64,000 nt of DNA from positions 15,564 through 79,563 of the forward strand of contig CAVOON010000002.1 in the NCBI GenBank assembly GCA_963697595.1, in the 5' to 3' direction. How positions within the stretch are numbered: the stretch's first letter is position 1; each line of letters starts with the position of its first letter. Below the pieces are notes generated by a model. That model ran no database searches. It was given only the letters and a program-made list of their open reading frames with translations, and had not been told where the DNA came from. Position numbers and translations under genes: made by a program. The stretch comes from an uncultured Alphaproteobacteria bacterium. Its GTDB lineage: Bacteria; Pseudomonadota; Alphaproteobacteria; Rhizobiales; Beijerinckiaceae. Below are positions 10,691-28,968 of the stretch, in pieces.

Positions 10691-10793
10691 AGCCGTCCAA
10701 GCCGTCCGCGCCGTAGAATATAGATATATATCAATACCTTGTGAAAAACCGTCGGTCGTCCAAAGCCGTCCATAACCGCCCCCGAGCCGTCCA
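10691..10793. repeat. Left cluster of AGCCGTCCA 9-mers around an AT-rich tract
   Basis: Exact copies at 10691, 10764 and 10785; near copies at 10700 and 10754; AT tract AGAATATAGATATATATCAATA between them. Confidence 0.8.
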
Positions 10794-10794
10794 A

Positions 10795-12079
10795 ATGCCA
10801 AAGATCACGAAACGCCTCATTGACGCGATCGAGCCCAGCGCCGAGCGCATAATCGTTTGGGATTCCGAGATAAAAGGCTTTGGCATGATCGCGTTGCCGA
10901 GCGGCCTTCGGTCGTTCTTTGTGCAATATCGCAACGAAAGTGGCCGCAAGCGTCGCCTCACTCTTGGACGGTTTCGGCGTGATGACCGCTGAAGGGGCGC
11001 GAAAAGCGGCGCGCGATGCGTTGGCGACGGTCGGAAGGGGCGTCGATCCCGTCGAAGATCGTCAGGCGCTACGCGCCGCGCCTAGCGTGTCACAATTGCT
11101 CGATCGCTACCTCGCTGAGCATGTGGACGTTCACAACGCCTCAAGGACCGCCGACGGTGTTCGCTTCGCGATTAAGAGGCATATTCTCCCGCGCCTCGGA
11201 ACGCTGAGGGCTGCCGCGGTCACTCGGCAGGATGTGCTCAAATTGCATGGGGCGATGCAAGCGACGCCGCGCCACGCCAATCTAACCCTTTCGATCCTGT
11301 CGAAAGCGTTCAATCTCGCCGAACTTTGGGGAATTCGACCAGAAAACTCCAATCCCTGTCGCCTGGTGCCGCGCTATCCGGAATCCCATCGCGAGCGCTT
11401 CCTTTCCGCCGACGAGCTCGCGCTTCTCGGGCGTGCTCTGCGAGAGGCGGAGTCTCCCGGGCTGCCGTGGCGCGAGAGGGCGGGTGCGAACGTGAAGCAT
11501 CTGGCTAAGGAAGAAAACCGATTTACGCCGATTAGCGCGCCCGCCCTGGAGGCTATCCGCCTACTGTTATTCACAGGAGCCAGGCTGTCTGAAATACTCG
11601 AACTGAAATGGGAGCATGTTGACCTAGCTCGGGGCTTGATCGCGCTGCCGACTCGCAAGGGCGGCTCGCGTCGCCCACATCCGGTGAGTACGATGGCGCT
11701 GGCGGTTCTCGCCAATATTGAGCGTGAACAAGGATCGCCATGGGTCTTGCCGGCTCCAAAAAACGCCCAAAAGTTTCTGACTAAATCCGTTGTTGAAAAC
11801 GCCTGGCAGCGAATTCGGGAACACGTGGGAATTCCGGATCTTCGGCTTCACGATTTGCGACATACGACCGGGACTTATGCGTCACAGGCGGGCGTGAACG
11901 CGTTCCAGGTCCGCGACCTCTTGCGCCACGCCAACATTTCAATGACGGGCCGTTACGCCAATCGAGATGACGATCCAACGCGCTCGATATCCGATATTGT
12001 CGGAGAGCGGATCGCTGCTGGATTAGAGGGGCGGGCGCTGGGCGAGGTTGTGCCGTTCAAAAGGCCTAGGCACAGGTAA
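10795..12079 (+). CDS. Tyrosine integrase with N-terminal arm-DNA-binding domain; apparent +1 frameshift at TTT 10972-10974
   Basis: MPKITKRLIDA..WDSEIKGFG...RRLTLGRF joins GVMTAEGARKAA when one T is removed. Catalytic motifs TGARLSE, RLHDLRHT, LRHANISMTGRY are present. Confidence 0.93.
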
Positions 12080-12282
12080 CAAGCTCACCAAGGAATGGGA
12101 AGCCTCTCGTTACCCACGTCGGTAACATGCGGACGTAAGAACAGCCCGCATTGAGACATTCGAACACGCGATAACGTTCTGCTCAAAAGCGGTCCAACTT
12201 ATTGCCCAAACTGAGCGCCTCCGGCGCTTCGTAATTCGCGGGCCGAAGGGCTAATTAAAGCGTCTTATAATGCTCCGGAGAC

Positions 12283-12310
12283 TTGGCAAGGGTTGCGTTT
12301 GCGCCATAAT
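12283..12310 (+). promoter_or_regulatory. Putative sigma70 promoter TTGGCA-N16-CATAAT of the peptidase-cyclase operon
   Basis: Near-consensus hexamers 37 bp upstream of ATG 12348. Confidence 0.45.
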
Positions 12311-12347
12311 GCCCTATTTTAATTCCGGGAGATTCGATATATTTGAG

Positions 12348-12884
12348 ATGGCGGAACAGACCAGCAACCCGGTGCCCGTAGGGGCGCAGAAAGCCGTTAT
12401 CTGGGCTTTCGCGGAGCGAATCGCAAGGGAGCTTAAGTTCAAGCCCAGCGACGCAATAGAATTGCTTGTTCTTCGGCTCGGCGGCAAGATTGAATACAAG
12501 AGCCCCACCCGACAGGACGGCCGATTGCCAGAATCGATTATCGTTCGATCTACAAAGGACTTTACAATCTATCTGCCGAGCATGACGTCGCCGCAACGTG
12601 ATAGGTTCACAATCGCACATGAACTCGGGCATTTTTGGTTGCATTATCCACTTGCAGCGAAAAAGGTTCCTGGTTTGCCGATGATGGCTACACGTTGGGT
12701 TGATGAATTAGATTCTGAGCTCGTTCGGACCGAGTGGGAAGCTAACTGGTTTGCTGCAGCTTTTCTTATGCCAGAAGTTCAATTTAGGGCTGCGTATAAT
12801 AAAGGCGGGGCCGATTTCGCCGCCTGCGAATTCAATGTAAGCGCGCATGCTGCAAGGGTGCGAGCGAAAAGCCTTTCTCTCTAG
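12348..12884 (+). CDS. ImmA/IrrE (Peptidase M78) zinc metallopeptidase, no N-terminal XRE HTH
   Basis: RDRFTIAHELGH (HExxH) and EWEANWFAAAFLMP motifs; the start could be as far upstream as 12270. Confidence 0.9.
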   Translation: MAEQTSNPVPVGAQKAVIWAFAERIARELKFKPSDAIELLVLRLGGKIEYKSPTRQDGRLPESIIVRSTKDFTIYLPSMTSPQRDRFTIAHELGHFWLHYPLAAKKVPGLPMMATRWVDELDSELVRTEWEANWFAAAFLMPEVQFRAAYNKGGADFAACEFNVSAHAARVRAKSLSL

Positions 12885-12892
12885 GTTGAAAC

Positions 12893-13981
12893 ATGGGGAT
12901 TTGTCCGAGCTACCGGCTCCGTCTCTTCATGTCCGTCGATCTGGTTGGGTCTACCGAGTTTAAAACGGGAGAGGGCAAAGATAGGGGAAATACTACCGAC
13001 CCTCACCCAAGGTGGGTGCAGGAAACAAAAAGATTTTATGTCAGCTTCCCTAAGTTTTTGCAGAGTCATTTTAGGGATGAATCTCCAAGATTTGGCATAA
13101 TTGAGAATGAGAGCGCGCCTAAGCTATGGAAAACAATCGGAGACGAGGTGGTTTTTTGCGTGAGAGTTCATAATTTAGAGCATTTCACTGCATGCGTTAC
13201 ATCCTTTATAAGGGCTTTAAGAGACTATGGAAGGCAATTGGAGAACGATGGGTTCCTTGACGTCAAGGGAACTATATGGGTCGGTGCCTTTCCAGCCCCA
13301 AATACAAGCGTAATGATATCTGGTTGCGATAGCAATTCTGGATATAACACCAAAATAGACGAGAACTATTGCGAGGAATATGAGCAAGCAGCTGACGATG
13401 AGCCGCGGAACTTTGATTTTTTAGGCAGAGACATTGATTTAGGATTTCGGATCGCAAAGCATGCAAGAGCAGAGGATCTCGCGTTATCATGTGAGGCCGC
13501 ATTTCTACTATGTGAAGCAAATAAGGCTCATCAATTTCATGAGAAATTTAATTTTAATGGCCGGGACGTCTTAAAGGGCGTCATGCGCGGCAAACCATAC
13601 CCGGTTGTAACCATAGATACGGAGCGTAATAATCTTAAATCAGAAATTGCAGATCTTGAGAGTAATTTATCCGGTGGCGGAGGTGCAAATGTAAACGTTA
13701 ACAGTCTTAGTAGATTTCTAACACTGTTATTTGGCGTAGAGAAAATTGCTTTTCCTGTTTTGCCAAAGCGTGGGCACGCTATTGAAGCCATGCCAAGTGA
13801 TTACAATGAGTTCGTTGGCCTTTGGCAGGAGGAGCAGTTCGAGATTACTTCTCGCGAGGAAGGAGAAGATCGTTCGGCGACTGAAGACTCCCCACCAGCG
13901 CAAGAGGGAAAAACAATCGACGAACAAGTCAACGAGCTATCTGCCAATATCCAGCCCATAGGCGAGACAGAGGATGATTGA
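12893..13981 (+). CDS. Divergent class III nucleotidyl-cyclase-like protein with acidic C-terminal tail
   Basis: Ordered motifs FMSVDLVGST (D16), WKTIGDEVV (K80, D84), FDFLGRDIDLGFRI (D175, D182, R186) and LKGV match the class III cyclase pattern. Confidence 0.7.
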   Translation: MGICPSYRLRLFMSVDLVGSTEFKTGEGKDRGNTTDPHPRWVQETKRFYVSFPKFLQSHFRDESPRFGIIENESAPKLWKTIGDEVVFCVRVHNLEHFTACVTSFIRALRDYGRQLENDGFLDVKGTIWVGAFPAPNTSVMISGCDSNSGYNTKIDENYCEEYEQAADDEPRNFDFLGRDIDLGFRIAKHARAEDLALSCEAAFLLCEANKAHQFHEKFNFNGRDVLKGVMRGKPYPVVTIDTERNNLKSEIADLESNLSGGGGANVNVNSLSRFLTLLFGVEKIAFPVLPKRGHAIEAMPSDYNEFVGLWQEEQFEITSREEGEDRSATEDSPPAQEGKTIDEQVNELSANIQPIGETEDD

Positions 13982-14109
13982 GCGCGGCGCACTGGACGAC
14001 AGTGGTATTTCTCGCCATTCTCAACGCGGTCCTGATCCTTGCGCCGCCGTATCTCGGGCAAATGCAACGAAGTAATGAGGTCACAGCCCCGCGGGAGAAC
14101 GCGGACGCT

Positions 14110-14400
14110 TCAAAGGTGTTCCATCGTCTGGAGAATTGTTTCGCAAGTCTCACGTGCGCTGCGCCCATCGTCGGCATGGCCCGTCCCGCTATTGAATGGC
14201 GCGCCGCCCGGGCCAATCTGCACAGCCCAGAACCATCGCCCATCATGCGGGCCGCCGCTGACTCGGTAAATGCGCGCCGCGGGAAGGTTGCCGAGCAAAA
14301 GCGACCAATCGTCCGCGAGAACTTCAACCACGCCATCAATCAGCGTGAACGCCGTTCGCCGCCATTTGAAGGATGCAGGGTCGGAATACGCGTTAGGCAT
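14110..14400 (-). CDS. Small hypothetical phage-type protein
   Basis: Start overlaps the SRAP stop; DW..LG.LPAARIYRVSGGPHDGRWFW looks like natural protein sequence. Confidence 0.65.
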   Translation of the reverse strand: MPNAYSDPASFKWRRTAFTLIDGVVEVLADDWSLLLGNLPAARIYRVSGGPHDGRWFWAVQIGPGGAPFNSGTGHADDGRSARETCETILQTMEHL

Positions 14401-15064
14401 TTTCGATCGGCTCGATAAGCGTCGAGTCATCGTCGCCTGCCCCGGCCTTATTCACGCGTGTAGAGACGATCCATTCTTGCAAAGCATCTTCCGGCAGCGA
14501 GTGCAGCAGTGTGGCAGCGGTTTCGCCCCTCAACCACGCTTCGGCGTCGTGCCAATCGAGAATGACAGGCATGCGGTCATGAAAGCGTTGCATCCAATTA
14601 TTCGCCCCGCCGACGATGATAGTCGCGTTTGGAAGATCGTCGCCGCCATCAAGGCCGCTCCAATGATCCCATAGGCCAGCTAACGCCAGAGGCCAGCCGT
14701 CGCGCGACGTGAAATAGTGCGGCGTCTTCGCCCCTTTCGCTCCTGTCCATTCATAGAAGCCGGAAGCCGGGATGATGCAGCGTCGATATTTGAACGCCCC
14801 GCGAAACATCGGTCTTTCAAGCACCGTTTCAGCGCGGGCGTTGAAGGTGGCGGGAAGCTCTTTGAGCGGCTTTTTCCACCAGGAGGGCACAAGGCCCCAA
14901 TACATCGGGACAAGCTCATTGCCGCGTTCGCCAGCGCGAATGACCTCTATCGGCGTCGTAGGGGCGATGTTGAAACGCGGCGCGAGATTGCGCGGCTGGC
15001 CGATTAGATCGGCTAAGCGATGGATTTCCGCCCATGAGAGATTCTGAGTGAAGCGTCCGCACAT
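14393..15064 (-). CDS. SOS response-associated peptidase (SRAP, YedK/HMCES family)
   Basis: N-terminal MCGRF, RFNIAPT, WGLVPSW, FNARAET, RRCIIPASGFYEW, HDRMPVIL. Confidence 0.95.
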   Translation of the reverse strand: MCGRFTQNLSWAEIHRLADLIGQPRNLAPRFNIAPTTPIEVIRAGERGNELVPMYWGLVPSWWKKPLKELPATFNARAETVLERPMFRGAFKYRRCIIPASGFYEWTGAKGAKTPHYFTSRDGWPLALAGLWDHWSGLDGGDDLPNATIIVGGANNWMQRFHDRMPVILDWHDAEAWLRGETAATLLHSLPEDALQEWIVSTRVNKAGAGDDDSTLIEPIENA

Positions 15065-15171
15065 GGCGAGGATCGTAACGCGGCGGCCGTCGAACGGAAA
15101 CCAACCTTCGCCATATTTGGCTCACGCCACCCCGCTCGCGATCGTCCATCTGCGATCCGCGGTGATGAGAT

Positions 15172-15378
15172 CTAGCGTCTCCGTTGCATCCGCCTGATTT
15201 CATCCTTCACGCGCTGCCAATGTTCCGCTGACCTGTTGGCGTCGACAACTTGTGGGGCTTCATGCTGGCGCAAGCGCGCTTCGCCATAGGCGTTCGCGCC
15301 GCAGCTTTCGATTAGGTCGCGCGCATCGGATTCGATAAGGGCGCGGGAAGTGCGCCGGCGGCGCAGCCAATTAAGCAC
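15172..15378 (-). CDS. Small hypothetical protein (68 aa)
   Basis: Start lies 5 bp after the stop of the 2TM gene; sequence is helical and natural-looking. Confidence 0.6.
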   Translation of the reverse strand: MLNWLRRRRTSRALIESDARDLIESCGANAYGEARLRQHEAPQVVDANRSAEHWQRVKDEIRRMQRRR

Positions 15379-15383
15379 TCGCG

Positions 15384-16079
15384 TTAGCCGGGAGAGCCCG
15401 TAAGCTCATCGTGAGCCTTAAACGTGCTGGGGGTGAAAGGCCAAAGGTGGCGAATGAAACTCGCCTTCCACCCAATATCCAATGAATATTTTTCTGGGCG
15501 TCCGTATGAGGCCATCGCCCTGTTATATGCGACTGCGTTGACGGCATACATGCACGGCGGCTCTTCGGCATAAATCAAGGTCAGCCGTCTTTCCAGATTA
15601 TTCAAGTTATCATGCCCATTTGCATCGGCGAGCACGCTATAAATTTGCTTTCTTAATCCGGCGTGCAAGCGAGCCTTCCCACTCAAATCAAAGACAAGAT
15701 CAAGCAGCCCAACGAGTGTTGTGAAGGCTGGAATTGCGTGAGGGTAGGTTTCTTTAAGTGGCGACAATGCGGCGGTCCCGGACGCAACGACTAAGAACAT
15801 CGCAGCACGGTGCGTCCAAGCAAAAAAGCGTTCTCTATCTTCGTGATAGAGAGCGCTCGCTAGACACCTAATTCTAAAATCATCGATTCCGTCTATTTGC
15901 TGTCCCTCGGCGGTCGGACGGGAGGCGGAGCTTTGGTCTGACTGTCCTGCCGGCCAATTCCGTGATCCTTCGCTAGATCTGGATGCCCCCTCGACGGTTG
16001 AGGCTTTGGCGGTGGAGGCGGTGGTGGTGGGGGAGACGGCTTTTTCTTCTCGGTCATTTGGTTTAATATCATTTGTCAT
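15384..16079 (-). CDS. SLATT-like two-transmembrane protein
   Basis: After a disordered S/T-rich N-terminus: ALYHEDRERFF, TM1 AAMFLVVASGTAAL, TM2 AIPAFTTLVGLLDLVFDL, ARLH..LR, EEPP, AYN. Recognised by pattern only. Confidence 0.55.
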   Translation of the reverse strand: MTNDIKPNDREEKAVSPTTTASTAKASTVEGASRSSEGSRNWPAGQSDQSSASRPTAEGQQIDGIDDFRIRCLASALYHEDRERFFAWTHRAAMFLVVASGTAALSPLKETYPHAIPAFTTLVGLLDLVFDLSGKARLHAGLRKQIYSVLADANGHDNLNNLERRLTLIYAEEPPCMYAVNAVAYNRAMASYGRPEKYSLDIGWKASFIRHLWPFTPSTFKAHDELTGSPG

Positions 16080-16399
16080 GATGACAGCCGCTCCCGTTGC
16101 GTGATAGGATTCCCTACACGGCGAAGAGGTTCGTCAATTTCGACGCGAGCGGGGATTCCGGCCCTGCCCATCAATCCCCCACCATAATCTATATCTGCGG
16201 CGTGGGCTAGGCTCACGCCGCCAAATGGCGCTGCCAATACCCGTTAAAGTCGACGCTCGGCTTATCCTTCATGGCTGGGCCCGCAATCCGAAGGGAGTGG
16301 TCGCCATTGCTCATGCTGCGGTGATCCTCGCGCCATGAAGCCACGTGGGCGTAGCGGATATGATAATGGCCGATCTGCGCGCGGCGGCGTAGCCACCCG

Positions 16400-18117: not shown

Positions 18118-20031
18118 TCATTGACCCGGGGCCATGCTGACGCCGGTGGGACCGCTGAGATTGCCATGGGCATTGATCTGCTGTTCGACCTTGACGACAA
18201 AATCGGGGGAGGGCGAGACTTCGACTTTGAGGCCGATATTTGCGGAGCCCTCAAGACGCACCGGCGTCGATCCCTCGCCTTCCGCAGACGCGCCAGTGGA
18301 TTTGAGCGCGCGCATGCGCTTGAACACCGAAGATCCGGCCTCATGCGGGGCCTCGGGCAATTCCCAAGGCATGCGGAAATTCGACTTGATCCAAGGATGC
18401 ATTTCCGCCTTGTCATTCGCGATATCGGCGGCAGACTTGTTCATCAGGCCACCATAAATGGCGTTGCGGTTGTAGATCGCCGAAGCGCCAAACGCAGCGG
18501 CGCCGAAGAGACCGGCGGTCGCCAGTGACGGCAGTGGAAGGCCAGCCGATGCGCCGCCCAGCAGCATCTGCGCGCCCTTGATCCCGAGATAGCCAGTAAG
18601 CGCCGTTCCGACCACTCCGGCTCCTGTCGCCTCTTTTGCGACCGTCGGATAATCGGAAAACACTTTCGCGGCGCGCGCTGCGGTCTCAGAGAGCACATTG
18701 ATGCCGTCCGTCAACGGCTGCAGAAAAGGCCTTCCGGCGGCGGCGGCGAGATCATCAACCTTGGCTTTGAGGCTGCTCGCCGCCATGCCAAAGTCCTCGT
18801 CTATAATCTTCCTAACGGCGGCGGTTCCGGGCGCGCCGTGTGTCATCGCGCGGTCTTTTTCATAAAGACCATGCTGCGTCAGTTGTTCGGCGACGAATTG
18901 TCCGGCGACGCGGTTCGAAAAGAGATGCGCTACCTCTTCTTGAACCTTTCTCGGCTCTGTAATTCCGGCCTTGTCGAGCGCCTTCTTGAGGTAGGTTTGC
19001 ACCCACTTATCCGGGTCGCTGATCGCGAGGTCCGAGCCATAGACGCCGCCAGGCATAATGCCTTTGACCGAGCCCGTTGACGTGTAAACGACCTTATTTG
19101 GATCAACGAGACCAAGCCTTACCATCTCCTCAGCAGCCATTTTCTGCATACGGCCGCCGATGATTGCCGAATAAAAAGATCCTCCCGCCGTGCCTGCCTG
19201 AGCGCCGCCGTGATGCTGAATCATTGTTGGTAGGACGCCGGCAACAAATTCTGGGGAGTAACCCATCGTCGCGGCGCGCCCATATTGCGCCGCTTCGAAG
19301 AACTCATAGGGCTTGATCGTATCGCCAAAGACGTTGATCGCCTTCGCGATGCCCTCGATATAATTGCGAAACTTGTCGATGTCCTGCGTCGTGCCGGCAA
19401 GCTCCGCCGCCTTGATTAGTTTATCGAAGCTTTCGTTAATCTCCTCCGTTGAGGCGTTTGGATGCGCATGTTGCTCAAGCACCCGCAACTTCAACAAAGG
19501 CTCGGAAACGCGAGCCGCCTCTTCATAAGAGCCGACGCTCGCGCGCTGATTGCGCAGCATATGCATGATATCGGCCTGGCGCACCGATCTATATTTTCCC
19601 GCGAGCTCCATCGCTTTCGCGTTCGCCTCAGCAATCTCACCCTCGCTCATGCCGGCATTGGACATGCGAATGTTTTCATGTAACTGCGCCTGAGCCTGTT
19701 TGACGATTTCCTTGACGATCGGCGCGGCGACAGCGGAGGCGGCGCCGATGGTGAGGCCCGTCTGGATCGCCCTTTCGCGCGCAGCCTGATTGCGCTCCCA
19801 GAAGCCGGGACCGGGCGCGACGGAGCTCGCCATCCTGCGCGCGACGTCAAGATGCTGCTGCTGCTTGATCCAGACGTCGGACATGCCGCGCGCCATGGAG
19901 TCCACGCGGCGACTGGCCTGCATCGCCGTGGCTTCCAGCCCGCGCAGCTTTTGCGCCACCTGTGCGAAGGTCGCGCCGGTCTTGTCTTGGGCGCTTATGA
20001 TTGCGCGGGTTTCGATAGTCTTGAGCGTCAT
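18118..20031 (-). CDS. Phage tail tape-measure-like protein (637 aa)
   Basis: N-terminal IISAQDKTGATFAQVAQKL; long Ala/Gly-rich helical body; GGAQAGTA...GR...LGLVDPNKV...PGG..GSDL...DP..W core; hydrophobic Gly-rich segments; C-terminal GSANIGLKVEV. Resembles myovirus-type TMPs from memory. Confidence 0.75.
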   Translation of the reverse strand: MTLKTIETRAIISAQDKTGATFAQVAQKLRGLEATAMQASRRVDSMARGMSDVWIKQQQHLDVARRMASSVAPGPGFWERNQAARERAIQTGLTIGAASAVAAPIVKEIVKQAQAQLHENIRMSNAGMSEGEIAEANAKAMELAGKYRSVRQADIMHMLRNQRASVGSYEEAARVSEPLLKLRVLEQHAHPNASTEEINESFDKLIKAAELAGTTQDIDKFRNYIEGIAKAINVFGDTIKPYEFFEAAQYGRAATMGYSPEFVAGVLPTMIQHHGGAQAGTAGGSFYSAIIGGRMQKMAAEEMVRLGLVDPNKVVYTSTGSVKGIMPGGVYGSDLAISDPDKWVQTYLKKALDKAGITEPRKVQEEVAHLFSNRVAGQFVAEQLTQHGLYEKDRAMTHGAPGTAAVRKIIDEDFGMAASSLKAKVDDLAAAAGRPFLQPLTDGINVLSETAARAAKVFSDYPTVAKEATGAGVVGTALTGYLGIKGAQMLLGGASAGLPLPSLATAGLFGAAAFGASAIYNRNAIYGGLMNKSAADIANDKAEMHPWIKSNFRMPWELPEAPHEAGSSVFKRMRALKSTGASAEGEGSTPVRLEGSANIGLKVEVSPSPDFVVKVEQQINAHGNLSGPTGVSMAPGQ

Positions 20032-20101
20032 GCCTATCGCCTTTGCTGTTCTGCAAAATATTGCTGCGCCTGTTCGAACCGATGGAAGGCTTCGTCAACC
20101 G

Positions 20102-20362
20102 TCACGCTGCCGAAGCGGCCAGTGCAATGACGTCGACGCCTTCGACACCCGCGCATTCGACGGCGCAATGCTTTCCAAACATCGCAAGAAATTCGTCGGC
20201 GAGCGTAGCCGGGAAGGTCAGCGGCGTTCCGGGCGCGTGCTCGATTATGTCGATGCGGCCGGATGTCTGGTTGTTGTGCTCGTCAAGGACAGGCGGCGCG
20301 GACGTTTTGCCGTTTCGGCCGTGCAGTGTGAACGGAAGCTTGATTGTCTTTGTGAGGGACAT
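20102..20362 (-). CDS. Hypothetical protein (86 aa) immediately upstream of TMP
   Basis: RBS AAGGA, co-oriented operon position. Confidence 0.6.
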   Translation of the reverse strand: MSLTKTIKLPFTLHGRNGKTSAPPVLDEHNNQTSGRIDIIEHAPGTPLTFPATLADEFLAMFGKHCAVECAGVEGVDVIALAASAA

Positions 20363-20443
20363 GGAAAATTCCTTTATTTCGACGTTGGCGCGGCGCGCGC
20401 CATGTGCGCCGGCCAGGGCTCCTATGCGTTTCGGCGCTTGGCG

Positions 20444-21322
20444 CTAGGCGCGCGCGCCGGAAACGACGATCGGCGGCGCGGCAAGCTTTTCGTCTCGGAC
20501 TCGCCTGCGATCGCGTTCCACTCGCATCGCTTCGAGTTCTTCCCGCTCTTCCTGCTTTCGACGCTCAATCAGCGCGAGGCGATTGGTTTCCGCGTTTCGC
20601 GCATGCGTCTCGCGCGCCTGCTGCTCTAGCTCCAACGATGTAAGCGGTTTTGGAGGCGGCAGCGGAACAAGCTCTTGTTCGACGCGAAAAAATTCATAGA
20701 TGGCTTTTTTCGTCGCGATCAGTATTTCGAGTTGAGCATCATCGATACTCGGGAGCGCTTTGCGCGCGGCTCTGACACTCATATCGGAGACGGCGATCTC
20801 CCACTCCCATATGATCATCTGAGCGCCGGCTTTATCGTGCGTGTACCACAGATCCTTCCCAGATTCGACGTCCCGATAAAATGGACGCAGGCGCCCTTCT
20901 TTCGATTTCAGATCCTCGAACAATGGATTGAAGATCGCCTGCGCATGCAGTTTTGCATTCTTGAGGCTGCGTATTTTCTCCTCGACCGCCTCAAACCTTT
21001 TCAGCGCTTCCGCGCGTGAGATATTCGGCGCTTCCGCGGTGTCGGAAATGTCAAAAAAACGCTGGGCAGCCGTGAGGCCCTCTTGCTGTTCGAGGCGTTC
21101 GATATAATTTTGAAGCGCCAGGGCTTCACTCTGCGCCGCGCTTTCTTGGCTCGGAACAAGTTTGAAGCGCTCAACGAAGGAAAGGCACCGTTCGCCGGTT
21201 GCTTTGTAATCGGCGAGGGCATTGTCAAACGCCCGCGACATTTCCGGATTGCCGTAACGAAGAAAGCGCTCGGGCGCTTGATCATTCGTCGACAGAGCCG
21301 CGTCGTTTCCGGTTTTGCTCAT
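20444..21322 (-). CDS. Hypothetical coiled-coil protein (292 aa)
   Basis: RBS AGGA before MSKTGND; E/R/K-rich helical C-terminus. Confidence 0.7.
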   Translation of the reverse strand: MSKTGNDAALSTNDQAPERFLRYGNPEMSRAFDNALADYKATGERCLSFVERFKLVPSQESAAQSEALALQNYIERLEQQEGLTAAQRFFDISDTAEAPNISRAEALKRFEAVEEKIRSLKNAKLHAQAIFNPLFEDLKSKEGRLRPFYRDVESGKDLWYTHDKAGAQMIIWEWEIAVSDMSVRAARKALPSIDDAQLEILIATKKAIYEFFRVEQELVPLPPPKPLTSLELEQQARETHARNAETNRLALIERRKQEEREELEAMRVERDRRRVRDEKLAAPPIVVSGARA

Positions 21323-21491
21323 CTGCTTTTTCCTAGTTCGTTTGGGAGGAGCGCGTCGTGGTGTTTGAGGGGAAAGTGCGCGGCGGTCTGCAAATTCGAC
21401 CGCCGCGCCTGTCGCGACCCCACTTCGGTCGAGAGGAAGGAATCCAACAAGGAACCTCTCGACCTCGCGTCGCGACAATGGGTGGAGCTCG

Positions 21492-21821
21492 TCAGCATGT
21501 TTTTGACAAGCACGGAAAATATTCATCCAGATTGCCGCCGGGCATAGCGATGGCTGCGGCGAGCGCTTGCTTACGTTGAAGGAGTCGGATTAGCGCCGCC
21601 AAGCGGTCGCGCTCCACTTGCGCAACTAAAAGTCGTTGCTTTGCTTGCACTGCCTCACTCAACGAACGGCCGAGCGCCGCTCTGTCGTAGGCTTCTTGCG
21701 CTTGACCTATCGCCTCGATATTCGCTGCCGCTTTTTTATGGGAGTCGATGAGCGCTTGCTCGATCTGCGCGAGAGAGACTGCCGAATTTTCGGTGAGAGC
21801 CAAAAGCTCGTTGAACTGCAT
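21492..21821 (-). CDS. Hypothetical coiled-coil protein (109 aa)
   Basis: RBS GGAGG; Ala/Gln/Leu heptad-like sequence. Confidence 0.65.
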   Translation of the reverse strand: MQFNELLALTENSAVSLAQIEQALIDSHKKAAANIEAIGQAQEAYDRAALGRSLSEAVQAKQRLLVAQVERDRLAALIRLLQRKQALAAAIAMPGGNLDEYFPCLSKTC

Positions 21822-22498: not shown

Positions 22499-22556
22499 TC
22501 GTCATCTCTAATTCGACGGGCGCCAAACTCGCGAAACTCTCGATCTCGATAATTTC

Positions 22557-22826: not shown

Positions 22827-22853
22827 TTCCAGCGTAACCCTTCTCTTTTAGAG

Positions 22854-22892: not shown

Positions 22893-22988
22893 AGGCAAGG
22901 GACGGTCGCGCATTGCTTTGTGATTTGACGGAAGTCCGCCGCAGTCCGTCTCAATCATCGATCGCGACTTTTTACGAGGGAGAAACTT

Positions 22989-23420: not shown

Positions 23421-24163
23421 TCATGACTACGGTTTCGATCTCTCGACGCTCCCTCGCTGGCGCGACGGCCGTCGCTGCTGTTGGTCTAATCGTCCCACTG
23501 GCCGATGCGAGCTCGCCGGCTCTAAGCGATCTTTGGCGCGAATGGCGTTCCCTGCGGCAGCCCCATCATGAGTCGTTGGCGATGCTGGAAGCTGCATTGG
23601 ATGCGCTTCCGGCCTGGGCCAAACCCGGTCCGCGATATATGAAAAAAGACGGCTCGCTTTCGGGTCCTGAAGTGGCTTGGCCAATGGACGTGGCGACTTT
23701 GCCGCCGGAATATGGCGCCTACAGAGTAGTTCGCCCCTCTCCCGAAGATTGTCGGCAGAGATATGAACGAAGCAAGCTAGCAAATGTAGCCAATGCCAAG
23801 ATTTCGTATGTAAAGGGGCTACGTCGGATCGCGCGCCTTCGGATGGCCAAGCGCGAAGAGGAGCGGAAACTCGAAATTCCAGAATTGCAGCGCAGATACG
23901 ATGCGATCGTTGAGAGAATCTATGAGCTTGCGTATGCGATTTTGAATTTAGATGACCATTCGCCGGATGCGACCGCCGGCAAAGTATTGATGGCGCTGTA
24001 TTTTGACGTCGACGACAATATGTTGTCCGGCGATGCGCTCGGCCATCATGAAGCAGTGCTGAAATCTCTCCGGCCGCATCTGACGGGACATATTGCAACA
24101 GACGTCGCCGCCATCCTCGACAATAAGCAAGCCAGACTTTGTGAGCAGCCTTTTTGGGCATGA
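23417..24163 (+). CDS. Hypothetical protein with twin-arginine-like N-terminus
   Basis: ISRRSLAGATAVAAVGLIVPLADA; ATGA overlap with the previous gene. Confidence 0.75.
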   Translation: MIMTTVSISRRSLAGATAVAAVGLIVPLADASSPALSDLWREWRSLRQPHHESLAMLEAALDALPAWAKPGPRYMKKDGSLSGPEVAWPMDVATLPPEYGAYRVVRPSPEDCRQRYERSKLANVANAKISYVKGLRRIARLRMAKREEERKLEIPELQRRYDAIVERIYELAYAILNLDDHSPDATAGKVLMALYFDVDDNMLSGDALGHHEAVLKSLRPHLTGHIATDVAAILDNKQARLCEQPFWA

Positions 24164-24432
24164 GAGCCACGAACGATCGCAAATCGGGGTCGCAGCCTGC
24201 AACTTCGAAACTTTCTGACTGGATTGGACAAGCGGATATGTCGACAACTTTGCTCCGCGCCGGCGCCTATGACCGGCGCTCCATTATGCGCAAGGCTCAC
24301 GCTGAATTTCGCGCGGCTAAACGGCGCGGAAAGGCCTGGACTTTTGCGCGCTGTCTGACCTTCGCATGGGCGATCGCGCGGGAGCAACGCGCGCGATGCT
24401 CTCGAGAAAGCGTCAAAAAATTGGCCGCGTGA
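24160..24432 (+). CDS. Small basic hypothetical phage-type protein
   Basis: ATGA overlap with the previous stop (alternative start 24238); YDRRSIMRKAH...W.F..CL..AW pattern. Confidence 0.6.
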   Translation: MRATNDRKSGSQPATSKLSDWIGQADMSTTLLRAGAYDRRSIMRKAHAEFRAAKRRGKAWTFARCLTFAWAIAREQRARCSRESVKKLAA

Positions 24433-24662
24433 AAGCTGTTTGGTTCTGCTGAGAGCCACACTTTGTGGCGTCTCGTCATTCGATGATTTGGGCGTATTTT
24501 GTCGTAAACGAGTGTAGTTCTCGCGCTCCAATATCACAGCAAAACAATAGGTTGTAACGTCTAATTATTTTGGCAATGGCCGCGCCCGCTACTTTTTTTG
24601 AAGATGACGCATCGAAACTGAAAGCGCTTGCGCGAGTCGCATGCTGAAATCGGGGTGGCTAC

Positions 24663-24929
24663 ATGAAAAAAGACGTGAGTCCGGTCGCATCTGAGTTGCG
24701 CCCAACTGATCAAGATGCGCCAGTAGCTCTACTCAATGAATTGCAGGCTGCGGATTATCTCAAGCTTTCCGTGCGCACCCTTCAACAATGGCGCGTGTCA
24801 GGTCGCGGGCCTCTGTTCACAAAATTGTCTCGCGCTGTTCGTTACCGGCGCGCCGATCTCGAAGCCTATGTCTCTCGCGGTGTGGCGCAGTCAACAACGC
24901 AAGCCGACCTAGCGAAAAGGACGGCGTGA
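24663..24929 (+). CDS. AlpA/excisionase-like HTH protein
   Basis: LLNELQAADYLKLSVRTLQQWR..G.GP.F.KL..AVRYRRADLEAY. Confidence 0.9.
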   Translation: MKKDVSPVASELRPTDQDAPVALLNELQAADYLKLSVRTLQQWRVSGRGPLFTKLSRAVRYRRADLEAYVSRGVAQSTTQADLAKRTA

Positions 24930-24934
24930 AGGCC

Positions 24935-25246
24935 ATGATTCGCGGCCGCACAATAGCTTTCACTCGCATCGCCGAGGCGGCGGCCCGCCAGTCGGAGACC
25001 GTTCTTTCGCGTTGGCTTCCCGACGGCCACAAAGACGCGGGCGAATGGGTGGCGCGCAATCCAAAGCGCCTGGATAAGAAGCCCGGAAGCTTCAAAATCA
25101 ATTTGCGCACCGGCCGTTGGGGCGATTTCGCTACAGGCGACAAAGGTGGCGACCTCATAGCGCTGGCCGCTTACCTCTTTAATCTTGATCAAGCGCAGGC
25201 GGCGCAGCGCGTCGCCGAAATGATGGGAATCGACCCCTTTGAATGA
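24935..25246 (+). CDS. Primase accessory (zinc-binding-domain-like) N-terminal module
   Basis: RWLPDG....EW.ARNP.R.D..PGSFKINL.TGRWGDFATGDKGGDLI.LAAYL, typical of primase N-terminal domains but without Cys ligands. Confidence 0.75.
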   Translation: MIRGRTIAFTRIAEAAARQSETVLSRWLPDGHKDAGEWVARNPKRLDKKPGSFKINLRTGRWGDFATGDKGGDLIALAAYLFNLDQAQAAQRVAEMMGIDPFE

Positions 25247-27422
25247 TCCCTTCGCGCCGATCGAAACTGCTAAGCCGAATGGTCGCGGGAATGCGCCCGC
25301 ATCGGCCGCCCCGCAGTGGATATTGATTGCTCCCGTTCCGCATGACGCTCTGGCGCCTCCGGCGCGTCATCCCAAACTTGGCGCACCATCCTCTCGTTGG
25401 GCCTATCACGACGCTTCTGGCGCCTTGCTCGGCTATATCCTCCGTTTCGACGGCGTCGACGGAAAGCAGTTTCGCCCGTTGGCGCTCTATGCGCCCGCGG
25501 CGGGCGGCGCGCCTGAGTGGCGCTGGGAGGCCTGGCCCGTTCCGCGCCCACTCTATGGGCTTGATCGCCTGGCCGCGCGACGTTCCGCTTTCGTCGTCAT
25601 CTGCGAGGGCGAGAAATCGGCTGACGCTGCGTCGCGTCTGTTGCCGGAGTTCGTTTGCGTCACCTCGCCGAACGGCTCGAAAAGCGCCGCCAAGGCCGAT
25701 TGGAGCGCTCTGCGCGGGCGGGACGTGACCGTCTGGCGCGATGCTGACGCGCCAGGGCTGGAATATGCGCAGAAGGTCGCCGAGCTATGCGCAGCGGCCG
25801 GCGCGGCCTCCATCGCCATCGTTACGGTGCCCGAAGGCGTCGCGGAAGGCTGGGACGCTGCCGACGCCGAGCAAGACGGCTGGACGCCGGCGCGCGCTCT
25901 CGACTTGATCGGTGCGGCGGAATCCTTTGAAAAAACCGCTGAGCCGGAAGCGAAAAAGGGAAAAGCAAAAAAAGAGCGCCGCACGCCGCAGCGCGATTTG
26001 TTCATGGCTCTGACGAAGGACTCCGCGTTGTGGCATGGGCCGGATTATGAAGCCTTCGTAACAGTTCCAATAAACTCGCATCGCGAAAGTTGGCCGGTGC
26101 GCTCGCAGGCTTTCCGCAGATGGCTCGCCATGCGCGCCTATGAGGCTCACGGCGTTGCGCCGGGAGGACAGGCGCTTGAAGATGTTATTCGCATCCTGGA
26201 GGCTCGCGCCGTCAGCGAGGGCGTGTTGCAAACGCCGTGGCGCCGGGTCGGCGCGCGCGATGGGAAGCTTTACATCGATCTTGCGGATTCGAAATGGCGC
26301 GCCGTCGAAATTCGCCCCACGGGTCGCACGCTCCTTGAGGCCCATGATCTGCCATTCGTGCGCTCTCCAAGAATGCGCGAACTCTGTTCGCCGCTCGGTG
26401 GATCTTCTATCAACGAGCTGCGTCCTTTCGCCAACGTCGCCAGCGATGATGACTTTATCCTTGTCGTCGCCTGGCTGGTCGCATCCTTTCGCGAGCGTGG
26501 GCCATATCCGATCTTGGTTTTGAACGGCGAGCAAGGATCTGGAAAATCCAGCTTTTCACGTCTGCTACGAAGCCTGCTTGATCCATCCTCTCCGGCTATC
26601 CAGGGGCCTCCGAAAGACGAACAAAATTTGATCGTCTCGGCGCAAAACGGGCATGTGCTCGCCTTCGACAATCTGTCGCATATTTCGCCGGAATTATCGG
26701 ACGGCCTTTGTCGTCTCGCAACGGGCAGCGGCTTCGCCGTGCGAGCGCTGCATACTGATAAGGATGAAAATATTTTCGACGGCGCTCGGCCGATCATCGT
26801 CAATGGAATACCGTCGCTTGCCGAGAGGCCGGATTTAAACGAGCGCGCGATCGTCGTGAGACTTGCTACCATTCCGGACGATAAACGCCGCCCTGAAGAC
26901 GAGCTCGAAGCTGAATGGGAAAAAGCGCGCCCGCGCGTGCTGGGCGCCATCTGCGCCGCACTGTCGACGGCGCTGAAAAACATCGGAAAGACGCGACTTG
27001 CGCGCTCCGGCCGCATGGCGGACTTCGAAAAATGGATCACGGCCGCTGAGCCGGGGCTTGATTGGGAACTGGGCACTTTTTCTCGCGCCTATTTGTCAAA
27101 TCGCAAAGACAGCGCCGAAACGGCGTTCGAAGGCGACCTGGTGGCGATGGCCATTCGCGAATTGCTCGTTTCCGATGACTGTTATTACTGGACTGGAACC
27201 GCCACTGAATTGCTCAATCGCCTTGGCGTGATTGTCGGCGAGTCGACACGCCAAATGCGCCTTTGGCCGAAGACGGCGCAAGGTCTCGGCAATAGCCTGG
27301 AGCGCTCGGCGCCGCTGTTGCGCGGCAAAGGAATCACAATCGAGCGAAAACATTCTGGCGTTCGATCGATCATCCTTTCGCGCGCGCGCGAGCCGGCGAC
27401 TCCGCCTGCAAACACGATATGA
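25239..27422 (+). CDS. Primase (TOPRIM)-helicase (P-loop ATPase) fusion replication protein
   Basis: ICEGEKSADAA and VWRDADAPG (TOPRIM); VLNGEQGSGKS (Walker A); LAFDN (Walker B); C-terminal winged-helix-like WP......G..L.R..P.LR..GI.I. Confidence 0.9.
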   Translation: MNDPFAPIETAKPNGRGNAPASAAPQWILIAPVPHDALAPPARHPKLGAPSSRWAYHDASGALLGYILRFDGVDGKQFRPLALYAPAAGGAPEWRWEAWPVPRPLYGLDRLAARRSAFVVICEGEKSADAASRLLPEFVCVTSPNGSKSAAKADWSALRGRDVTVWRDADAPGLEYAQKVAELCAAAGAASIAIVTVPEGVAEGWDAADAEQDGWTPARALDLIGAAESFEKTAEPEAKKGKAKKERRTPQRDLFMALTKDSALWHGPDYEAFVTVPINSHRESWPVRSQAFRRWLAMRAYEAHGVAPGGQALEDVIRILEARAVSEGVLQTPWRRVGARDGKLYIDLADSKWRAVEIRPTGRTLLEAHDLPFVRSPRMRELCSPLGGSSINELRPFANVASDDDFILVVAWLVASFRERGPYPILVLNGEQGSGKSSFSRLLRSLLDPSSPAIQGPPKDEQNLIVSAQNGHVLAFDNLSHISPELSDGLCRLATGSGFAVRALHTDKDENIFDGARPIIVNGIPSLAERPDLNERAIVVRLATIPDDKRRPEDELEAEWEKARPRVLGAICAALSTALKNIGKTRLARSGRMADFEKWITAAEPGLDWELGTFSRAYLSNRKDSAETAFEGDLVAMAIRELLVSDDCYYWTGTATELLNRLGVIVGESTRQMRLWPKTAQGLGNSLERSAPLLRGKGITIERKHSGVRSIILSRAREPATPPANTI

Positions 27423-27442
27423 CCACGTAGCTACGCTCCTAG

Positions 27443-27826
27443 ATGAAGGAAGCCGGATCAATGCAAAATGAGAATGCGGCGGAGAGTGAAAGCGCCCCAG
27501 TTCCGCTCGCGACATGGGCTCTCGCGCAGACAACGAAAAGCCCTTGCGCGAAGGCCGTTTTGCTGGCGCTCGCGGCAAGCGCCGGCGCTGACGACATTGC
27601 GTTCGTCACGCCGCGCCAGTTAGGGATCCAAACTGAGCTAACCGCCTACAATGCTTCAAAGTGGCTCAAGCGACTAATAACGCTTGGCCTCGCAAAGCGA
27701 TTAGGCGCGCCGAATCTGACTACGCCGACCGCCTATCAATTGAGGCCAAGCCAGCGCGAAAGCGAACGCCGCATGGCCCATATGGAAGTGAAGGTCGCCG
27801 GAGAACCGATCTATGACGAACGCTAA
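27443..27826 (+). CDS. Stand-alone winged-helix (phage replication-initiator N-terminus-like) protein, copy 1
   Basis: ATWALAQTTKSPCAKAVLLALA...TPRQLGIQTELT.....KWLKRL..LGL (alternative start 27461). Confidence 0.75.
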   Translation: MKEAGSMQNENAAESESAPVPLATWALAQTTKSPCAKAVLLALAASAGADDIAFVTPRQLGIQTELTAYNASKWLKRLITLGLAKRLGAPNLTTPTAYQLRPSQRESERRMAHMEVKVAGEPIYDER

Positions 27827-28139
27827 TTGTCCGACCGTCTCCGGCTCCGCGCGGCAGAAAAAGCGCGGAAAGATTCCGGTTATGACGTGGGCGCTTGAAC
27901 AGACCACAGAAAGCCCTAGCGCCAAGGCTGTATTATTGGCGCTCGCGATCGCTGCAAATGCAAAAGGCGAGGCTCTGGTGTCTCAAAATACGTTGGCCTT
28001 CCAGACGAACCAATCCATAGACTCCGTGCAGCGTCGCTTGAAACATCTTTTACGAGAGGGTTTCATTGTGCGCACCAAAGAACCAAATGCTTTCAAGGGC
28101 ACGCCCGCTGGATACACGCTGCAAAGCATGGTGCGCTAA
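27813..28139 (+). CDS. Stand-alone winged-helix protein, copy 2 (paralog)
   Basis: MTWALEQTTESPSAKAVLLALA...VSQNTLAFQTNQSIDSVQRRLKHL..EGFI. Confidence 0.75.
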   Translation: MTNANCPTVSGSARQKKRGKIPVMTWALEQTTESPSAKAVLLALAIAANAKGEALVSQNTLAFQTNQSIDSVQRRLKHLLREGFIVRTKEPNAFKGTPAGYTLQSMVR

Positions 28140-28816
28140 CCCTCGATCTGCTCCGCGTGGCAGCTCCTGACGAGCGGGATGCGCGGACGAACCCGGGGGA
28201 TGGGCGGACGCTCGGCAAACTCGTGACAAATCGAGCGCCGCACGCCGTGGCCTCTCCCTGCGGCGCCCTCCGCGATTAGGTTGACGCGCTTGGCGCTTGG
28301 CCTTCCACGCCGCGTCTCCCGGCCGCCATGGCGCTCCCATTTCGACATCGCTGCCGCCCGTGCAGCGCTTGCATTGTGCTAGAGCGGATGCGCGTCGCTG
28401 GCGTGAATGGTGTGACCTCGGCGCTCCCGTTCCCCTTTCGACTTCGATACCCGCACACGTCCAGCAATGTCGCGCTGGCTCAGGCGCGCCATTATCGAGG
28501 GGTCTGAAGGTCTCACGGCTGGCGCGATGAGCGGGTCCTTCCTGGAGGGTATGCCCAGTGCGGGCCCACGCGCCCCGGAATTTCGCTAGTAAACCTGAAT
28601 TGAAATAGGGTTTACACGGTTGACACCGAGGCAAGAAACGCCTGCAAAATCAACTATTTTTCCCGCAAAAAGTGCGCGCTTCGGCTGAGCGCGCGCCAGT
28701 TCCGTTCCCCTTTTCGAGCCTCCAAGATCGGTTCAATGACGCGGCTCGCCATCGACTCACCGAGAACCTGAAAATCCGGTTGTCGGTGAGGCCACAACCT
28801 ACCGCCTGGACAACAT

Positions 28817-28968
28817 TGGACGGCTCCACTTTTCAGCCGTCCACCCGCTGCGCCTTTAAAACCGCAGCTTTGGACGGCTTGGACGGCTTGGACGGCTTCT
28901 CCTTTTAAAAGTGAAAAATAAAGAGAGAGAGGGGTAGGGGAGAGCGAAGTGGACCCCATTGGACGGGT
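28817..28968. repeat. Right cluster of TGGACGGCT (reverse AGCCGTCCA) 9-mers, origin-like
   Basis: Three perfect tandem copies at 28871-28897; inverted pair at 28817/28835; near copy at 28960; AT/purine tract TTTTAAAAGTGAAAAATAAAGAGAGAGAGGGG follows. Confidence 0.85.

Follow-up and report, generated by a model that had tools for sequence, protein, structure and literature searches.

The repeated 9-mers at the two ends of a tRNA-Lys island are best explained as the two halves of a replication origin that has the integration site of the island at its centre, so the halves lie 18 kb apart while the island is integrated and would come together only on the excised circle. The island lies in the window, which is the whole stretch of 64,000 nucleotides analysed here, from an uncultured Alphaproteobacteria bacterium (Beijerinckiaceae). 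This reading, which is inferred from sequence and predicted structure alone, is given a probability of about 0.55. No published description of this arrangement was found.

The observation that 9-mer iteron-like repeats occur at both ends is confirmed. The exact sequence AGCCGTCCA occurs 9 times in the window against 0.46 expected, and 0 of 100 shuffles reach 9 matches. Eight copies lie in two oppositely oriented clusters just inside the ends of an 18.7-kb island, at 10691, 10764 and 10785 (+), 28817 (-), 28835 (+) and as a tandem triple at 28871, 28880 and 28889 (-), and these positions agree with the original prediction. The near copies that it reported at 10700 (AGCCGTCCG), 10754 (GGTCGTCCA) and 28960 (ACCCGTCCA, - strand) are also present. 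The ninth exact copy, which had not been noted, is found at 29337, outside the island and at the start of an ORF (ATGGACGGCT), and is probably there by chance. The island is bounded by a 47-bp direct repeat, the longest common match between its ends, at 10425-10471 and 29093-29139. This repeat is the 3' end of a tRNA-Lys(TTT) gene identified by ARAGORN and Rfam at 29093-29168 on the - strand, so that 29093-29139 is the att core at the right boundary and 10425-10471 is its distal copy at the left boundary. A search of the island against Rfam found only the tRNA. On the excised circle the two inner triples would be 461 bp apart. The segment 10472-10560 has 38% GC and the spacers next to the repeats have 23-25% GC, against 59% for the window.

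The (+) half begins with an inner triple at 10691-10714, formed by AGCCGTCCA, AGCCGTCCG and a copy starting with CGCCGT, and is immediately preceded by a conserved purine-rich box, GTAGGACAGTAGGGG, at 10672-10686. An AT-rich spacer (23% GC) at 10715-10749 separates the triple from the outer iterons at 10750-10793, which are GGTCGTCCA at 10754 and AGCCGTCCA at 10764 and 10785. The last copy ends at 10793 and the int ATG is at 10795. The (-) half has its outer iterons at 28807-28843, with TGGAC at 28807, TGGACGGCT at 28817 and one inverted copy, AGCCGTCCA, at 28835, and its inner triple at 28871-28897 is TGGACGGCT three times in tandem. The inner triple is followed at 28898-28935 by a pyrimidine run and then a purine run, which is AT-rich (25% GC in the first 28 bp), partly palindromic and a candidate DNA-melting element. 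This tract is present directly after the inner (-) triple in most of 26 loci examined, where the mean best stem is 5.0 bp against 3.9 bp in shuffles and the stems differ in sequence, so the excess is only modest and the tract is treated as an AT-rich strand-asymmetric element and not as a proven cruciform. Two further degenerate copies, TGGACcccaTTGGACGGGT, lie at 28950-28968 (-).

A second repeat family, TGGTGACA, which the original prediction missed, forms candidate integrase arm-type sites. Four of its five copies in the window are tandem pairs 11 bp apart at the island ends, all on the + strand: at 10589 and 10600 (10589-10610, 118-139 bp from the core) and at 29015 and 29026 (29015-29037, 56-78 bp from the core). 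Related islands have equivalent pairs with other sequences (GCTTACN, TGCGGACA, GGTGACCC) at the same place, and the attP of phage P4 is annotated with tandem arm pairs on both sides of its core. The only two matches to the IHF consensus in the whole window, also not noted before, lie at 10729-10741 (+, TATCAATACCTTG), inside the AT-rich spacer of the (+) half, and at 29075-29087 (-), between the arm pair and the core. Among related loci, which are denoted here by L numbers, L043 (Pannonibacter sp. SL95) has an IHF match at the same relative place in the latter arm, and L043, L029 and L034 have one between the core and the arm pair in the other arm. A sigma-70 promoter scan gave one match overlapping the left arm pair (10591-10619) and one on the opposite strand in the AT spacer, but neither is conserved in relatives and nothing is drawn from them.

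The int gene (10795-12079, +) encodes a tyrosine integrase with an N-terminal arm-binding domain, and it is broken by a 1-bp insertion near 10972, which had also gone unnoticed. The Arm-DNA-bind_3 profile is split between two reading frames, and three independent peat metagenome runs lack one base at 10972, so the frameshift is private to this copy and this island probably cannot excise now. In metagenome relatives about 94% identical to the window, none of the roughly 28 substitutions listed across the two end regions falls in a 9-mer or an arm pair. A search of metagenome contigs for an exact 69-bp attP junction pattern found nothing. Public runs compared with the window's ends and with the complete island L043 show empty-site-like joints but no circle junction and, as these are assembler contigs only, this is uninformative about excision.

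The replication module at 24935-27422 (+) comprises a small primase N-terminal protein (24935-25246) and a 727-aa protein (25239-27422) with a Toprim primase, an SF3 helicase and a C-terminal winged helix. It is preceded by a gene for an AlpA-type HTH_17 protein (24663-24929, +), a candidate excisionase or activator that matches Pfam HTH_17 and the PHROG category of excisionase and transcriptional regulator. A sequence search of the PDB gave nothing useful, and only the fold search was informative. The AF2 model of the 727-aa protein (pLDDT 84) shows a C-terminal helix-helix-strand-strand arrangement, and in Foldseek it matches NrS-1, ASFV and D5 helicases and SaPI5 and SaPIbov1 Rep, including 7ola and 8tch. 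Two small wHTH proteins (HTH_36/MarR-like), which resemble the N-terminus of lambda-O-type initiators, are encoded at 27443-28139 (+), and the (-) arm starts 0.7 kb after the last gene of the replication module.

Complete related islands have the same layout, and their 9-mer changes at both ends together, which is the check that had been asked for beforehand: it is AGCCGTCCA in L058, GGTCGTCAT in L043 (the ATGACGACC class), GnCnGTCCr in L015 and AGCGTCCCC in L047. The (+) arm upstream of int recurs in at least 17 loci (L015, L018, L029, L034, L043, L044, L058, L083, L085, L086, L088-L093 and L095), and a spacer of about 35 bp is present in every related half-origin. The (-) arm recurs within about 100-300 bp of a tRNA 3' end in about 20 loci, at about 16 different tRNA genes of 12 amino-acid classes. 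A tandem or near-tandem triple of 9-mers is the most conserved feature across the family, and the outer set with one inverted copy is also seen in L164, L010, L016, L047 and L064. In the closest relatives (L003, with a primase 79% identical to that of the window, L001/L164 with 78% and L005, from Methylocapsa acidiphila B2, with 64%) the (-) arm stays next to att although the primase gene is 8-10 kb away, which argues that the link to att is selected. L001 was at first an apparent counter-example, because it has no 9-mer within 10 kb, but in the rest of the contig (L164) the array lies just beyond, next to a tRNA-Arg.

In other relatives the two arms are contiguous. L038, L017, L009, L011, L050, L051, L068 and L142 carry both arms 90-160 bp apart downstream of the primase gene with no att site between them, and in L038 int and the tRNA are 7 kb away. 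In these loci other than L068 the (-) arm follows the primase stop codon within a few bp to about 1.5 kb. The sequences flanking the centre are homologous between the window and the contiguous L017, which share the box GTAGGACAGTAGGGG before the (+) triple and the pyrimidine/purine tract, and close variants of the box are found in the contiguous origins of L009 and L011.

The sequence of the 9-mers tracks the primase-helicase. Loci that share the 9-mer of the window have primases 49-79% identical to its primase, while loci with another 9-mer have 35-49%. The identities of AlpA (38-57% against 39-55%) and Int (51-53% against 50-55%) do not separate the two groups. The predicted recognition helix (WP-TAQGLGN-ER) and wing (RKHSG) of the C-terminal domain are nearly invariant in the TGGACGGCT group and differ elsewhere, although this co-variation between primase and iteron is confounded by shared descent.

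In the best explanation, the 9-mers are the iterons of the island's replication origin, a two-armed, palindrome-like unit in which each arm has about six copies, in an inner triple and an outer set, and the two arms point in opposite directions. Their most likely reader is the 727-aa Toprim-SF3 helicase, through its predicted C-terminal winged helix. In this lineage the attachment site, a core in the tRNA 3' end flanked on each side by a tandem pair of candidate integrase arm sites, with IHF-like sites, would lie in the centre of that unit. Integration would therefore put the (-) arm, with its AT-rich tract, next to the tRNA at one end and the (+) arm at the other end, directly upstream of int, and excision would bring them back together. 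The anatomy, its conservation, the joint change of the 9-mers at both ends and their independence from att are established by this analysis, while it is inferred that the primase-helicase binds the 9-mers, that a complete origin exists only on the excised circle, so that excision licenses replication, and that initiator bound to the (+) arm, which covers the int promoter/leader region, affects int expression. Several facts weigh against this explanation. On the circle the arms are about 390-500 bp apart, and about 1.8 kb apart in L047, while in contiguous origins they are 90-160 bp apart, so close cooperation across the centre is not guaranteed. The (-) arm keeps the AT-rich tract and might fire on its own. 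In P4, two iteron sites are annotated 4.5 kb apart in cis, and separation by 18.7 kb on the chromosome therefore need not be an absolute block.

The interpretation of the original prediction, that integration splits a bipartite origin, is thus partly supported. The repeats are iteron-like, lie at both ends in opposite orientation and change together in homologous islands, and the two clusters are two halves of one unit because relatives carry them contiguously downstream of the primase gene. Its further proposals, that integration prevents replication in situ and that binding at the last copy is coupled to int expression, remain hypotheses. Its analogy with P4 is only partly apt, since P4 has the order alpha, crr iterons, attP and int but its ori and crr lie on the same side of attP and are not separated by integration. 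Its alternative, that the repeats are excisionase sites, is not supported.

An unlikely but not negligible rival is that the right (-) arm with its AT-rich tract is the whole functional origin, while the (+) arm serves only as an operator through which the initiator, or another 9-mer binder, controls the int promoter or leader. The pyrimidine/purine tract is attached to the (-) arm only, the (+) arm lies between the arm pair and the int start with its last copy 0-25 bp from the start codon in the loci where it precedes int, the distance between the arms on the circle is not conserved (390 bp to 1.8 kb), and P4 has a single iteron block (crr) next to attP on the primase side and none before int. 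However, in contiguous relatives both arms form one mirror-symmetric unit far from any int, in L038 the (+) arm precedes an alpA-like gene and not int, in L047 it lies downstream of int and so is not tied to the int promoter, and PICI origins are described as always having two iteron sets around the AT-rich region (PMC6092414).

It is very unlikely that the iterons are read by the two small wHTH proteins, with the helicase recruited secondarily. These proteins match the PHROG category of replication initiation protein/O-like and Pfam HTH_36, and their genes lie directly upstream of the right cluster. But tblastn finds no homologue of either protein in any of 80 related, primase-anchored loci that keep the repeats, which include loci with the identical 9-mer (L058, L038, L016, L054) and islands where only 0.4-0.7 kb of non-coding DNA separates the primase gene from the tRNA. 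The small elements L085 and L090 encode, in the part recovered, only int, an unknown protein (301 aa in L090), alpA and the two primase proteins. The wHTH proteins, which had been proposed as binders together with AlpA and the primase-helicase, are considered accessory and not the conserved iteron reader.

The weakest rival, in which the 9-mers are extra integrase arm-type sites or binding sites of the AlpA-type excisionase that shape the attP/attL/attR complexes, rests on their flanking attP on both arms, their staying next to att when the primase gene is far away (L003, L005, L164), the presence of an AlpA-type gene and the overlap of Int and excisionase sites with the int promoter in P4-like and KplE1-like elements, but it is very unlikely because arrays of the same architecture occur with no att nearby in the eight contiguous loci, islands with related integrases but no 9-mer arrays still have the tandem arm pairs (L055, L084, and integrases with 41% identity or less), the 9-mer class does not follow Int or AlpA identity, the 11-bp-spaced pairs match the geometry of the annotated P4 arm repeats, and twelve or more sites in two inverted sets is not an excisionase pattern.

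A further, tentative reading, considered less likely than not, is replication licensed by excision as a property of a large family of small integrative elements in Alphaproteobacteria, which would keep their attachment site in the centre of their replication origin, and whose origin would then exist as a working unit only on the excised circle. This would prevent onion-skin replication of the host chromosome, fix the order of excision before replication and, through the half-origin that covers the int leader, link initiator occupancy to integrase expression. Integrated elements that replicate before they excise amplify and damage the host chromosome, and how elements order the two steps is known only for a few phages and satellites, where it works through gene regulation. 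An origin that integration physically takes apart would be a structural solution to that problem. The arrangement is not a curiosity of one island, since it recurs at about 16 different tRNA genes and one non-tRNA site in Hyphomicrobiales and related orders and persists when the primase gene moves 8-10 kb away, which suggests selection. It also gives a practical rule for annotating such islands, whose two ends carry matching inverted iteron arrays just outside the integrase arm sites.

Among known systems, the origins of phage-inducible chromosomal islands (PICI/SaPI), which use Pri-Rep self-loading helicases, have short iterons in two sets of opposite orientation around an AT-rich region immediately 3' of the primase-helicase gene, and their initiator is an SF3-type helicase that binds the iterons through a C-terminal winged helix (PMC9371898, PMC6092414). 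The contiguous relatives such as L038 and L017 fit this description, and the position of the (-) arm after the replication module in the window agrees with it, while in L003, L005 and L164 the arm is far from the primase gene. The window itself does not have the two sets as one contiguous unit, because the attachment site lies between them and the integrated island carries one set at each end, whereas in PICIs the origin is internal and intact. The iterons here are 9-mers in triples with 9-bp period and not 5-6-mers, there is no detectable sequence similarity to SaPI Reps but only fold similarity (TM about 0.3-0.5), and no helper phage, capsid-remodelling or packaging genes were identified in the island of the window.

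Satellite phage P4 (NC_001609) has an identical order on the circle, which is primase-helicase gene, iteron block (crr), tandem arm pair, core, tandem arm pair and int, and it also has a tRNA 3' end as target, an AlpA-type gene upstream of the replication genes and two separate iteron sites. It has no iteron block between attP and int, its second site (ori) is 4.5 kb away on the same side of attP and its iterons are octamers (TGTTCACC). There is no BLASTP similarity between the two primase-helicases (E = 1.7), which share only the general plan of a primase, an SF3 helicase and a C-terminal DNA-binding domain, and the integrases are only distantly related (E = 2e-5).

The logic of a functional unit that exists in only one integration state is that of the SSV1-type integrase gene, which is split by its own attP (PMC8371274). 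Promoters are also formed across the joined ends of Tn916 and IS circles. In those cases site-specific recombination breaks or rebuilds a gene or a transcription unit, whose activity then depends on whether the element is integrated or circular, whereas here it would be a replication origin, of which no published example was found. Finally, the TGGTGACA pairs resemble the arm-type integrase sites and IHF sites of lambda and P4 attP, being direct repeats on both arms, 56-139 bp from the core, with an IHF-consensus site between the pair and the core on one arm, and this resemblance applies to these pairs and not to the 9-mers.

The 9-mer AGCCGTCCA occurs nine times in the 64-kb window, against 0.46 copies expected, and none of 100 shuffled sequences reaches nine. 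The observation of the original prediction is therefore confirmed, since eight of these copies lie where it had placed them, three in + orientation at 10691, 10764 and 10785, and, on the other side, a tandem triple in - orientation at 28871-28897, a further - copy at 28817 and one + copy at 28835, and the degenerate copies that it reported at 10700, 10754 and 28960 are also present. The ninth exact copy, at 29337-29345, lies outside the island, 170 bp beyond the tRNA and at the start codon of the ORF 29336-29995 (ATGGACGGCT), and is probably due to chance, given the 0.46 copies expected per window. The clusters sit just inside an 18.7-kb island, which is bounded by a 47-bp direct repeat (10425-10471 and 29093-29139) that corresponds to the 3' end of tRNA-Lys(TTT). 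On the excised circle, the two inner triples would be 461 bp apart.

Other features of the island ends had been overlooked. A second repeat, TGGTGACA, occurs as tandem pairs 11 bp apart at 10589/10600 and 29015/29026, all on the + strand, which account for four of the five copies in the window and lie between the core and the 9-mer clusters, 56-139 bp from the core. The only two matches to the IHF consensus WATCAANNNNTTR in the 64 kb are located at 29075-29087, between the right pair and the att core, and at 10729-10741, in the AT-rich spacer of the left cluster. Among related loci, which are designated by L numbers, L043, L029 and L034 have matches between the core and the arm pair, and L017 and L018 have one in the (+) spacer. 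The integrase gene that starts at 10795 has a 1-bp insertion near 10972 (region 10960-10980), which splits the arm-binding domain between two reading frames. Contigs about 94% identical from three independent peat metagenome runs all lack one base at 10972, so the frameshift is private to this sequence and represents either a recent mutation or an assembly error.

From left to right, the island encodes the integrase, an IrrE/M78 peptidase, a 362-aa protein of unknown function, an SRAP peptidase, several unknown proteins, including a 637-aa one, an HTH_3 regulator, an AlpA-type HTH_17 protein, a small primase N-terminal protein, a 727-aa Toprim-helicase and two small wHTH proteins that resemble the N-terminus of lambda-O-type initiators, followed by 950 bp of non-coding DNA that holds the right cluster. 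The segment 12270-13981, in which the IrrE/ImmA-type M78 peptidase gene is followed by the 362-aa protein, which matches only a PHROG of unknown function (phrog_18024), is AT-richer (43-50% GC) than the rest of the island and looks like a separately acquired module. On the - strand at 18118-21526, the 637-aa protein and a 360-aa protein have no Pfam, NCBIfam or PHROG match, but the 637-aa protein has homologues (39-54%) in the related elements L003, L005 and L017, so it is conserved cargo or a structural gene of unknown role. An AlphaFold model of the 727-aa protein (pLDDT 84) ends in a predicted winged helix and matches SF3 primase-helicases (NrS-1, ASFV, poxvirus D5/E5) and the structures of SaPI5 Pri-Rep and SaPIbov1 Rep.

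The primase-helicase has more than a thousand relatives, mostly in Hyphomicrobiales, and 80 genomic loci around such genes were retrieved. In about 20 of them, a tRNA gene on the opposite strand is preceded by the same module that is found at the right end of the island in the window, which consists, in order, of two or three 9-mers, often one inverted copy, a spacer, a tandem or near-tandem triple of 9-mers abutting a pyrimidine run and then a purine run, about 100 bp, a tandem pair 10-12 bp apart, about 60 bp, and the tRNA 3' end. About 16 different tRNA genes, in 12 amino-acid classes, are used. The 9-mer drifts among lineages, being TGGACGGCT in the window and in about a dozen loci, TGGGCGGCT in L017, ATGACGACC in L043, GGGGACGGT in L064, CGGACAG in L056, TGGACACC in L027, GTGACAGGC in L050 and TGCGGACAA in L051, while the tandem pair varies independently (GCTTACN, GGTGACN, TGCGGACA). 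One sub-lineage uses a non-tRNA target with a core like GAYNCGATTAACCATC and arm sites GTGCGTGCAC in triples, and its right ends (L054, about 15240-15290, and L062, about 14490-14520) and left ends (L086, L088 and L095, upstream of int) match each other. Single genomes or MAGs can carry two or three different members of this primase family, as in MFD03399.bin.2.84, which has three (L052, L054, L062), Pararhizobium ih9, which has two (L019, L022), and Pseudovibrio Alg231-02, which has two (L020, L028), and this raises the question of cross-talk or incompatibility between origins and initiators.

Five loci contain a whole island bounded by a repeat of the tRNA end, and in those that carry the arrays the two ends co-vary. 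L058 has AGCCGTCCA at both ends in opposite orientation, as in the window, but its tandem pair is TGCGGACAT. L043 has GGTCGTCAT at the left and ATGACGACC, its reverse complement, at the right, and L015 has a degenerate GTCC-type motif at both ends. L047 has AGCGTCCCC and GGGGACGCT, and there the (+) array lies downstream of int, so the whole attP-int cassette sits between the two arrays. L055 has only the tandem pairs (GGTGACCCA) at both ends and no 9-mer arrays. Integrase-anchored loci from genomes and metagenomes add many more left ends with the same plan, in which the core and the pair are followed by an inner triple, a spacer of about 35 bp, an outer set, and the int start 0-25 bp after the last copy (L018, L029, L034, L044, L083, L085, L086, L088-L093 and L095), whereas L084, whose integrase is 54% identical, and the more distant integrases show only the tandem pairs or triples.

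In other relatives the two clusters form one contiguous unit. In L038, the primase gene is followed by six copies in - orientation, the pyrimidine/purine tract, about 90 bp, and six copies in + orientation, with no att core and no tandem pair between them, while int and its tRNA-Gly are 7 kb away. The same contiguous arrangement, with 90-160 bp between the inner triples, is found in L017 (primase 69% identical to that of the window), L009, L011, L050, L051, L068 and L142. In L142 (5740-5920), a distant relative (primase 39%), the two iteron triples (ACCGTCAC three times, then GTGACGGT three times) appear to point the opposite way relative to the primase gene, compared with the rest of the family. 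The sequences next to the centre are homologous between the window and L017, since the box GTAGGACAGTAGGGG precedes the inner (+) triple and the pyrimidine/purine tract follows the inner (-) triple. The two ends of the island in the window therefore correspond to a contiguous unit with about 370 bp of attP inserted in its middle, or the reverse history.

The tandem pairs are the candidate integrase arm sites. In the annotated P4 genome the order on the circle is the same, with the alpha primase-helicase gene, the crr iteron block, a tandem pair of "attP arm sequence repeats", the core, another tandem pair, and int, and the geometry matches that of the TGGTGACA pairs. The pairs are present in islands without 9-mer arrays (L055, L084) and change independently of the 9-mers, since the window and L058 share the 9-mer but not the pair. 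In the relatives that are about 94% identical, none of the roughly 28 listed substitutions across the two end regions falls in a 9-mer or in a pair.

In the three closest relatives, L003 (79%), L001/L164 (78%) and L005 (64%), the (-) arm stays next to the tRNA although the primase gene is 8-10 kb away. The locus L001 has no 9-mers and looked like a counter-example, but the rest of its contig (L164, IMG/VR contig IMGVR_UViG_3300033822_000087) shows the array, a GGTGACAC/GGAGACAC pair and a tRNA-Arg core just beyond it. At 10001-13114 of L164, whose primase is 78% identical, a lambda gpA-type large terminase and a Nu1-like small protein are encoded directly upstream of the (-) iteron arm and the tRNA-Arg end, and a second integrase gene follows the tRNA fragment, so the islands are arranged in tandem. 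Some family members may therefore package their own DNA. The split arrangement persists across many integration targets and in two configurations, with int outside the halves or between them, which argues that having att between the halves is maintained by selection, without indicating why.

The primase-helicase is the most likely reader of the 9-mers. Primases are 49-79% identical to that of the window in loci with the same 9-mer and 35-49% in loci with a different one, whereas the corresponding ranges are 38-57% and 39-55% for AlpA and 51-53% and 50-55% for Int, so only the primase separates the two groups. In its C-terminal domain, the helix WP-TAQGLGN-x-x-ER and the wing RKHSG are nearly invariant in the TGGACGGCT group and differ in every lineage with another 9-mer. 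This correlation, which is confounded by common descent, points to the primase-helicase, but binding is inferred.

In the best reading, the element would replicate as a circle from a two-armed iteron origin loaded by its own primase-helicase, probably with one hexamer per arm as proposed for SaPI Reps (PMC9371898). Because attP lies in the centre, the integrated island would have only half-origins at its ends, and excision would restore the unit. The arrangement of the arms and its recurrence in relatives were observed directly, while the steps from the separation of the halves to an integrated island that cannot replicate, and any effect of the (+) arm on int expression, are inference. The interpretation of the original prediction, an origin divided by integration, is thus only partly supported. 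Against a strict block, the (-) arm keeps the AT-rich tract, the spacing between the arms on the circle is not conserved, the two iteron sites of P4 are annotated 4.5 kb apart, and contiguous forms exist in integrated elements as well. This particular copy, with a frameshifted integrase and no detected circle, is probably inactive, and the interest lies in the family-wide architecture.

The main alternative is that the (+) arm is now only an operator for int. The two wHTH proteins are unlikely readers of the 9-mers, since they have no homologue in any of the 80 loci, including loci with the identical 9-mer and islands where only 0.4-0.7 kb of non-coding DNA separates the primase gene from the tRNA, and small elements (L085, L090) encode, in the part recovered, only int, an unknown protein (301 aa in L090), alpA and the two primase proteins.

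Full-text literature searches for origins split or rebuilt by site-specific recombination, which cannot prove novelty, returned only the split integrase genes of archaeal SSV-type elements and unrelated material. The original prediction had invoked the P4 origin and its second iteron site, and this analogy is a useful lead but not a precedent for a split. The synteny with P4 is shared, but the proteins are not detectably similar, and the second iteron site of P4, ori, lies 4.5 kb from crr on the same side of attP, so integration does not separate the two sites. The contiguous layout of the relatives is exactly what is described for PICI and SaPI origins, which have two iteron sets pointing in opposite directions around an AT-rich region, immediately 3' of the initiator gene, and are bound by the winged helix of a self-loading helicase (PMC9371898; PMC6092414). 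The island is classed with replicons of the PICI/P4 type, from which it differs in that its putative origin is bisected by attP.
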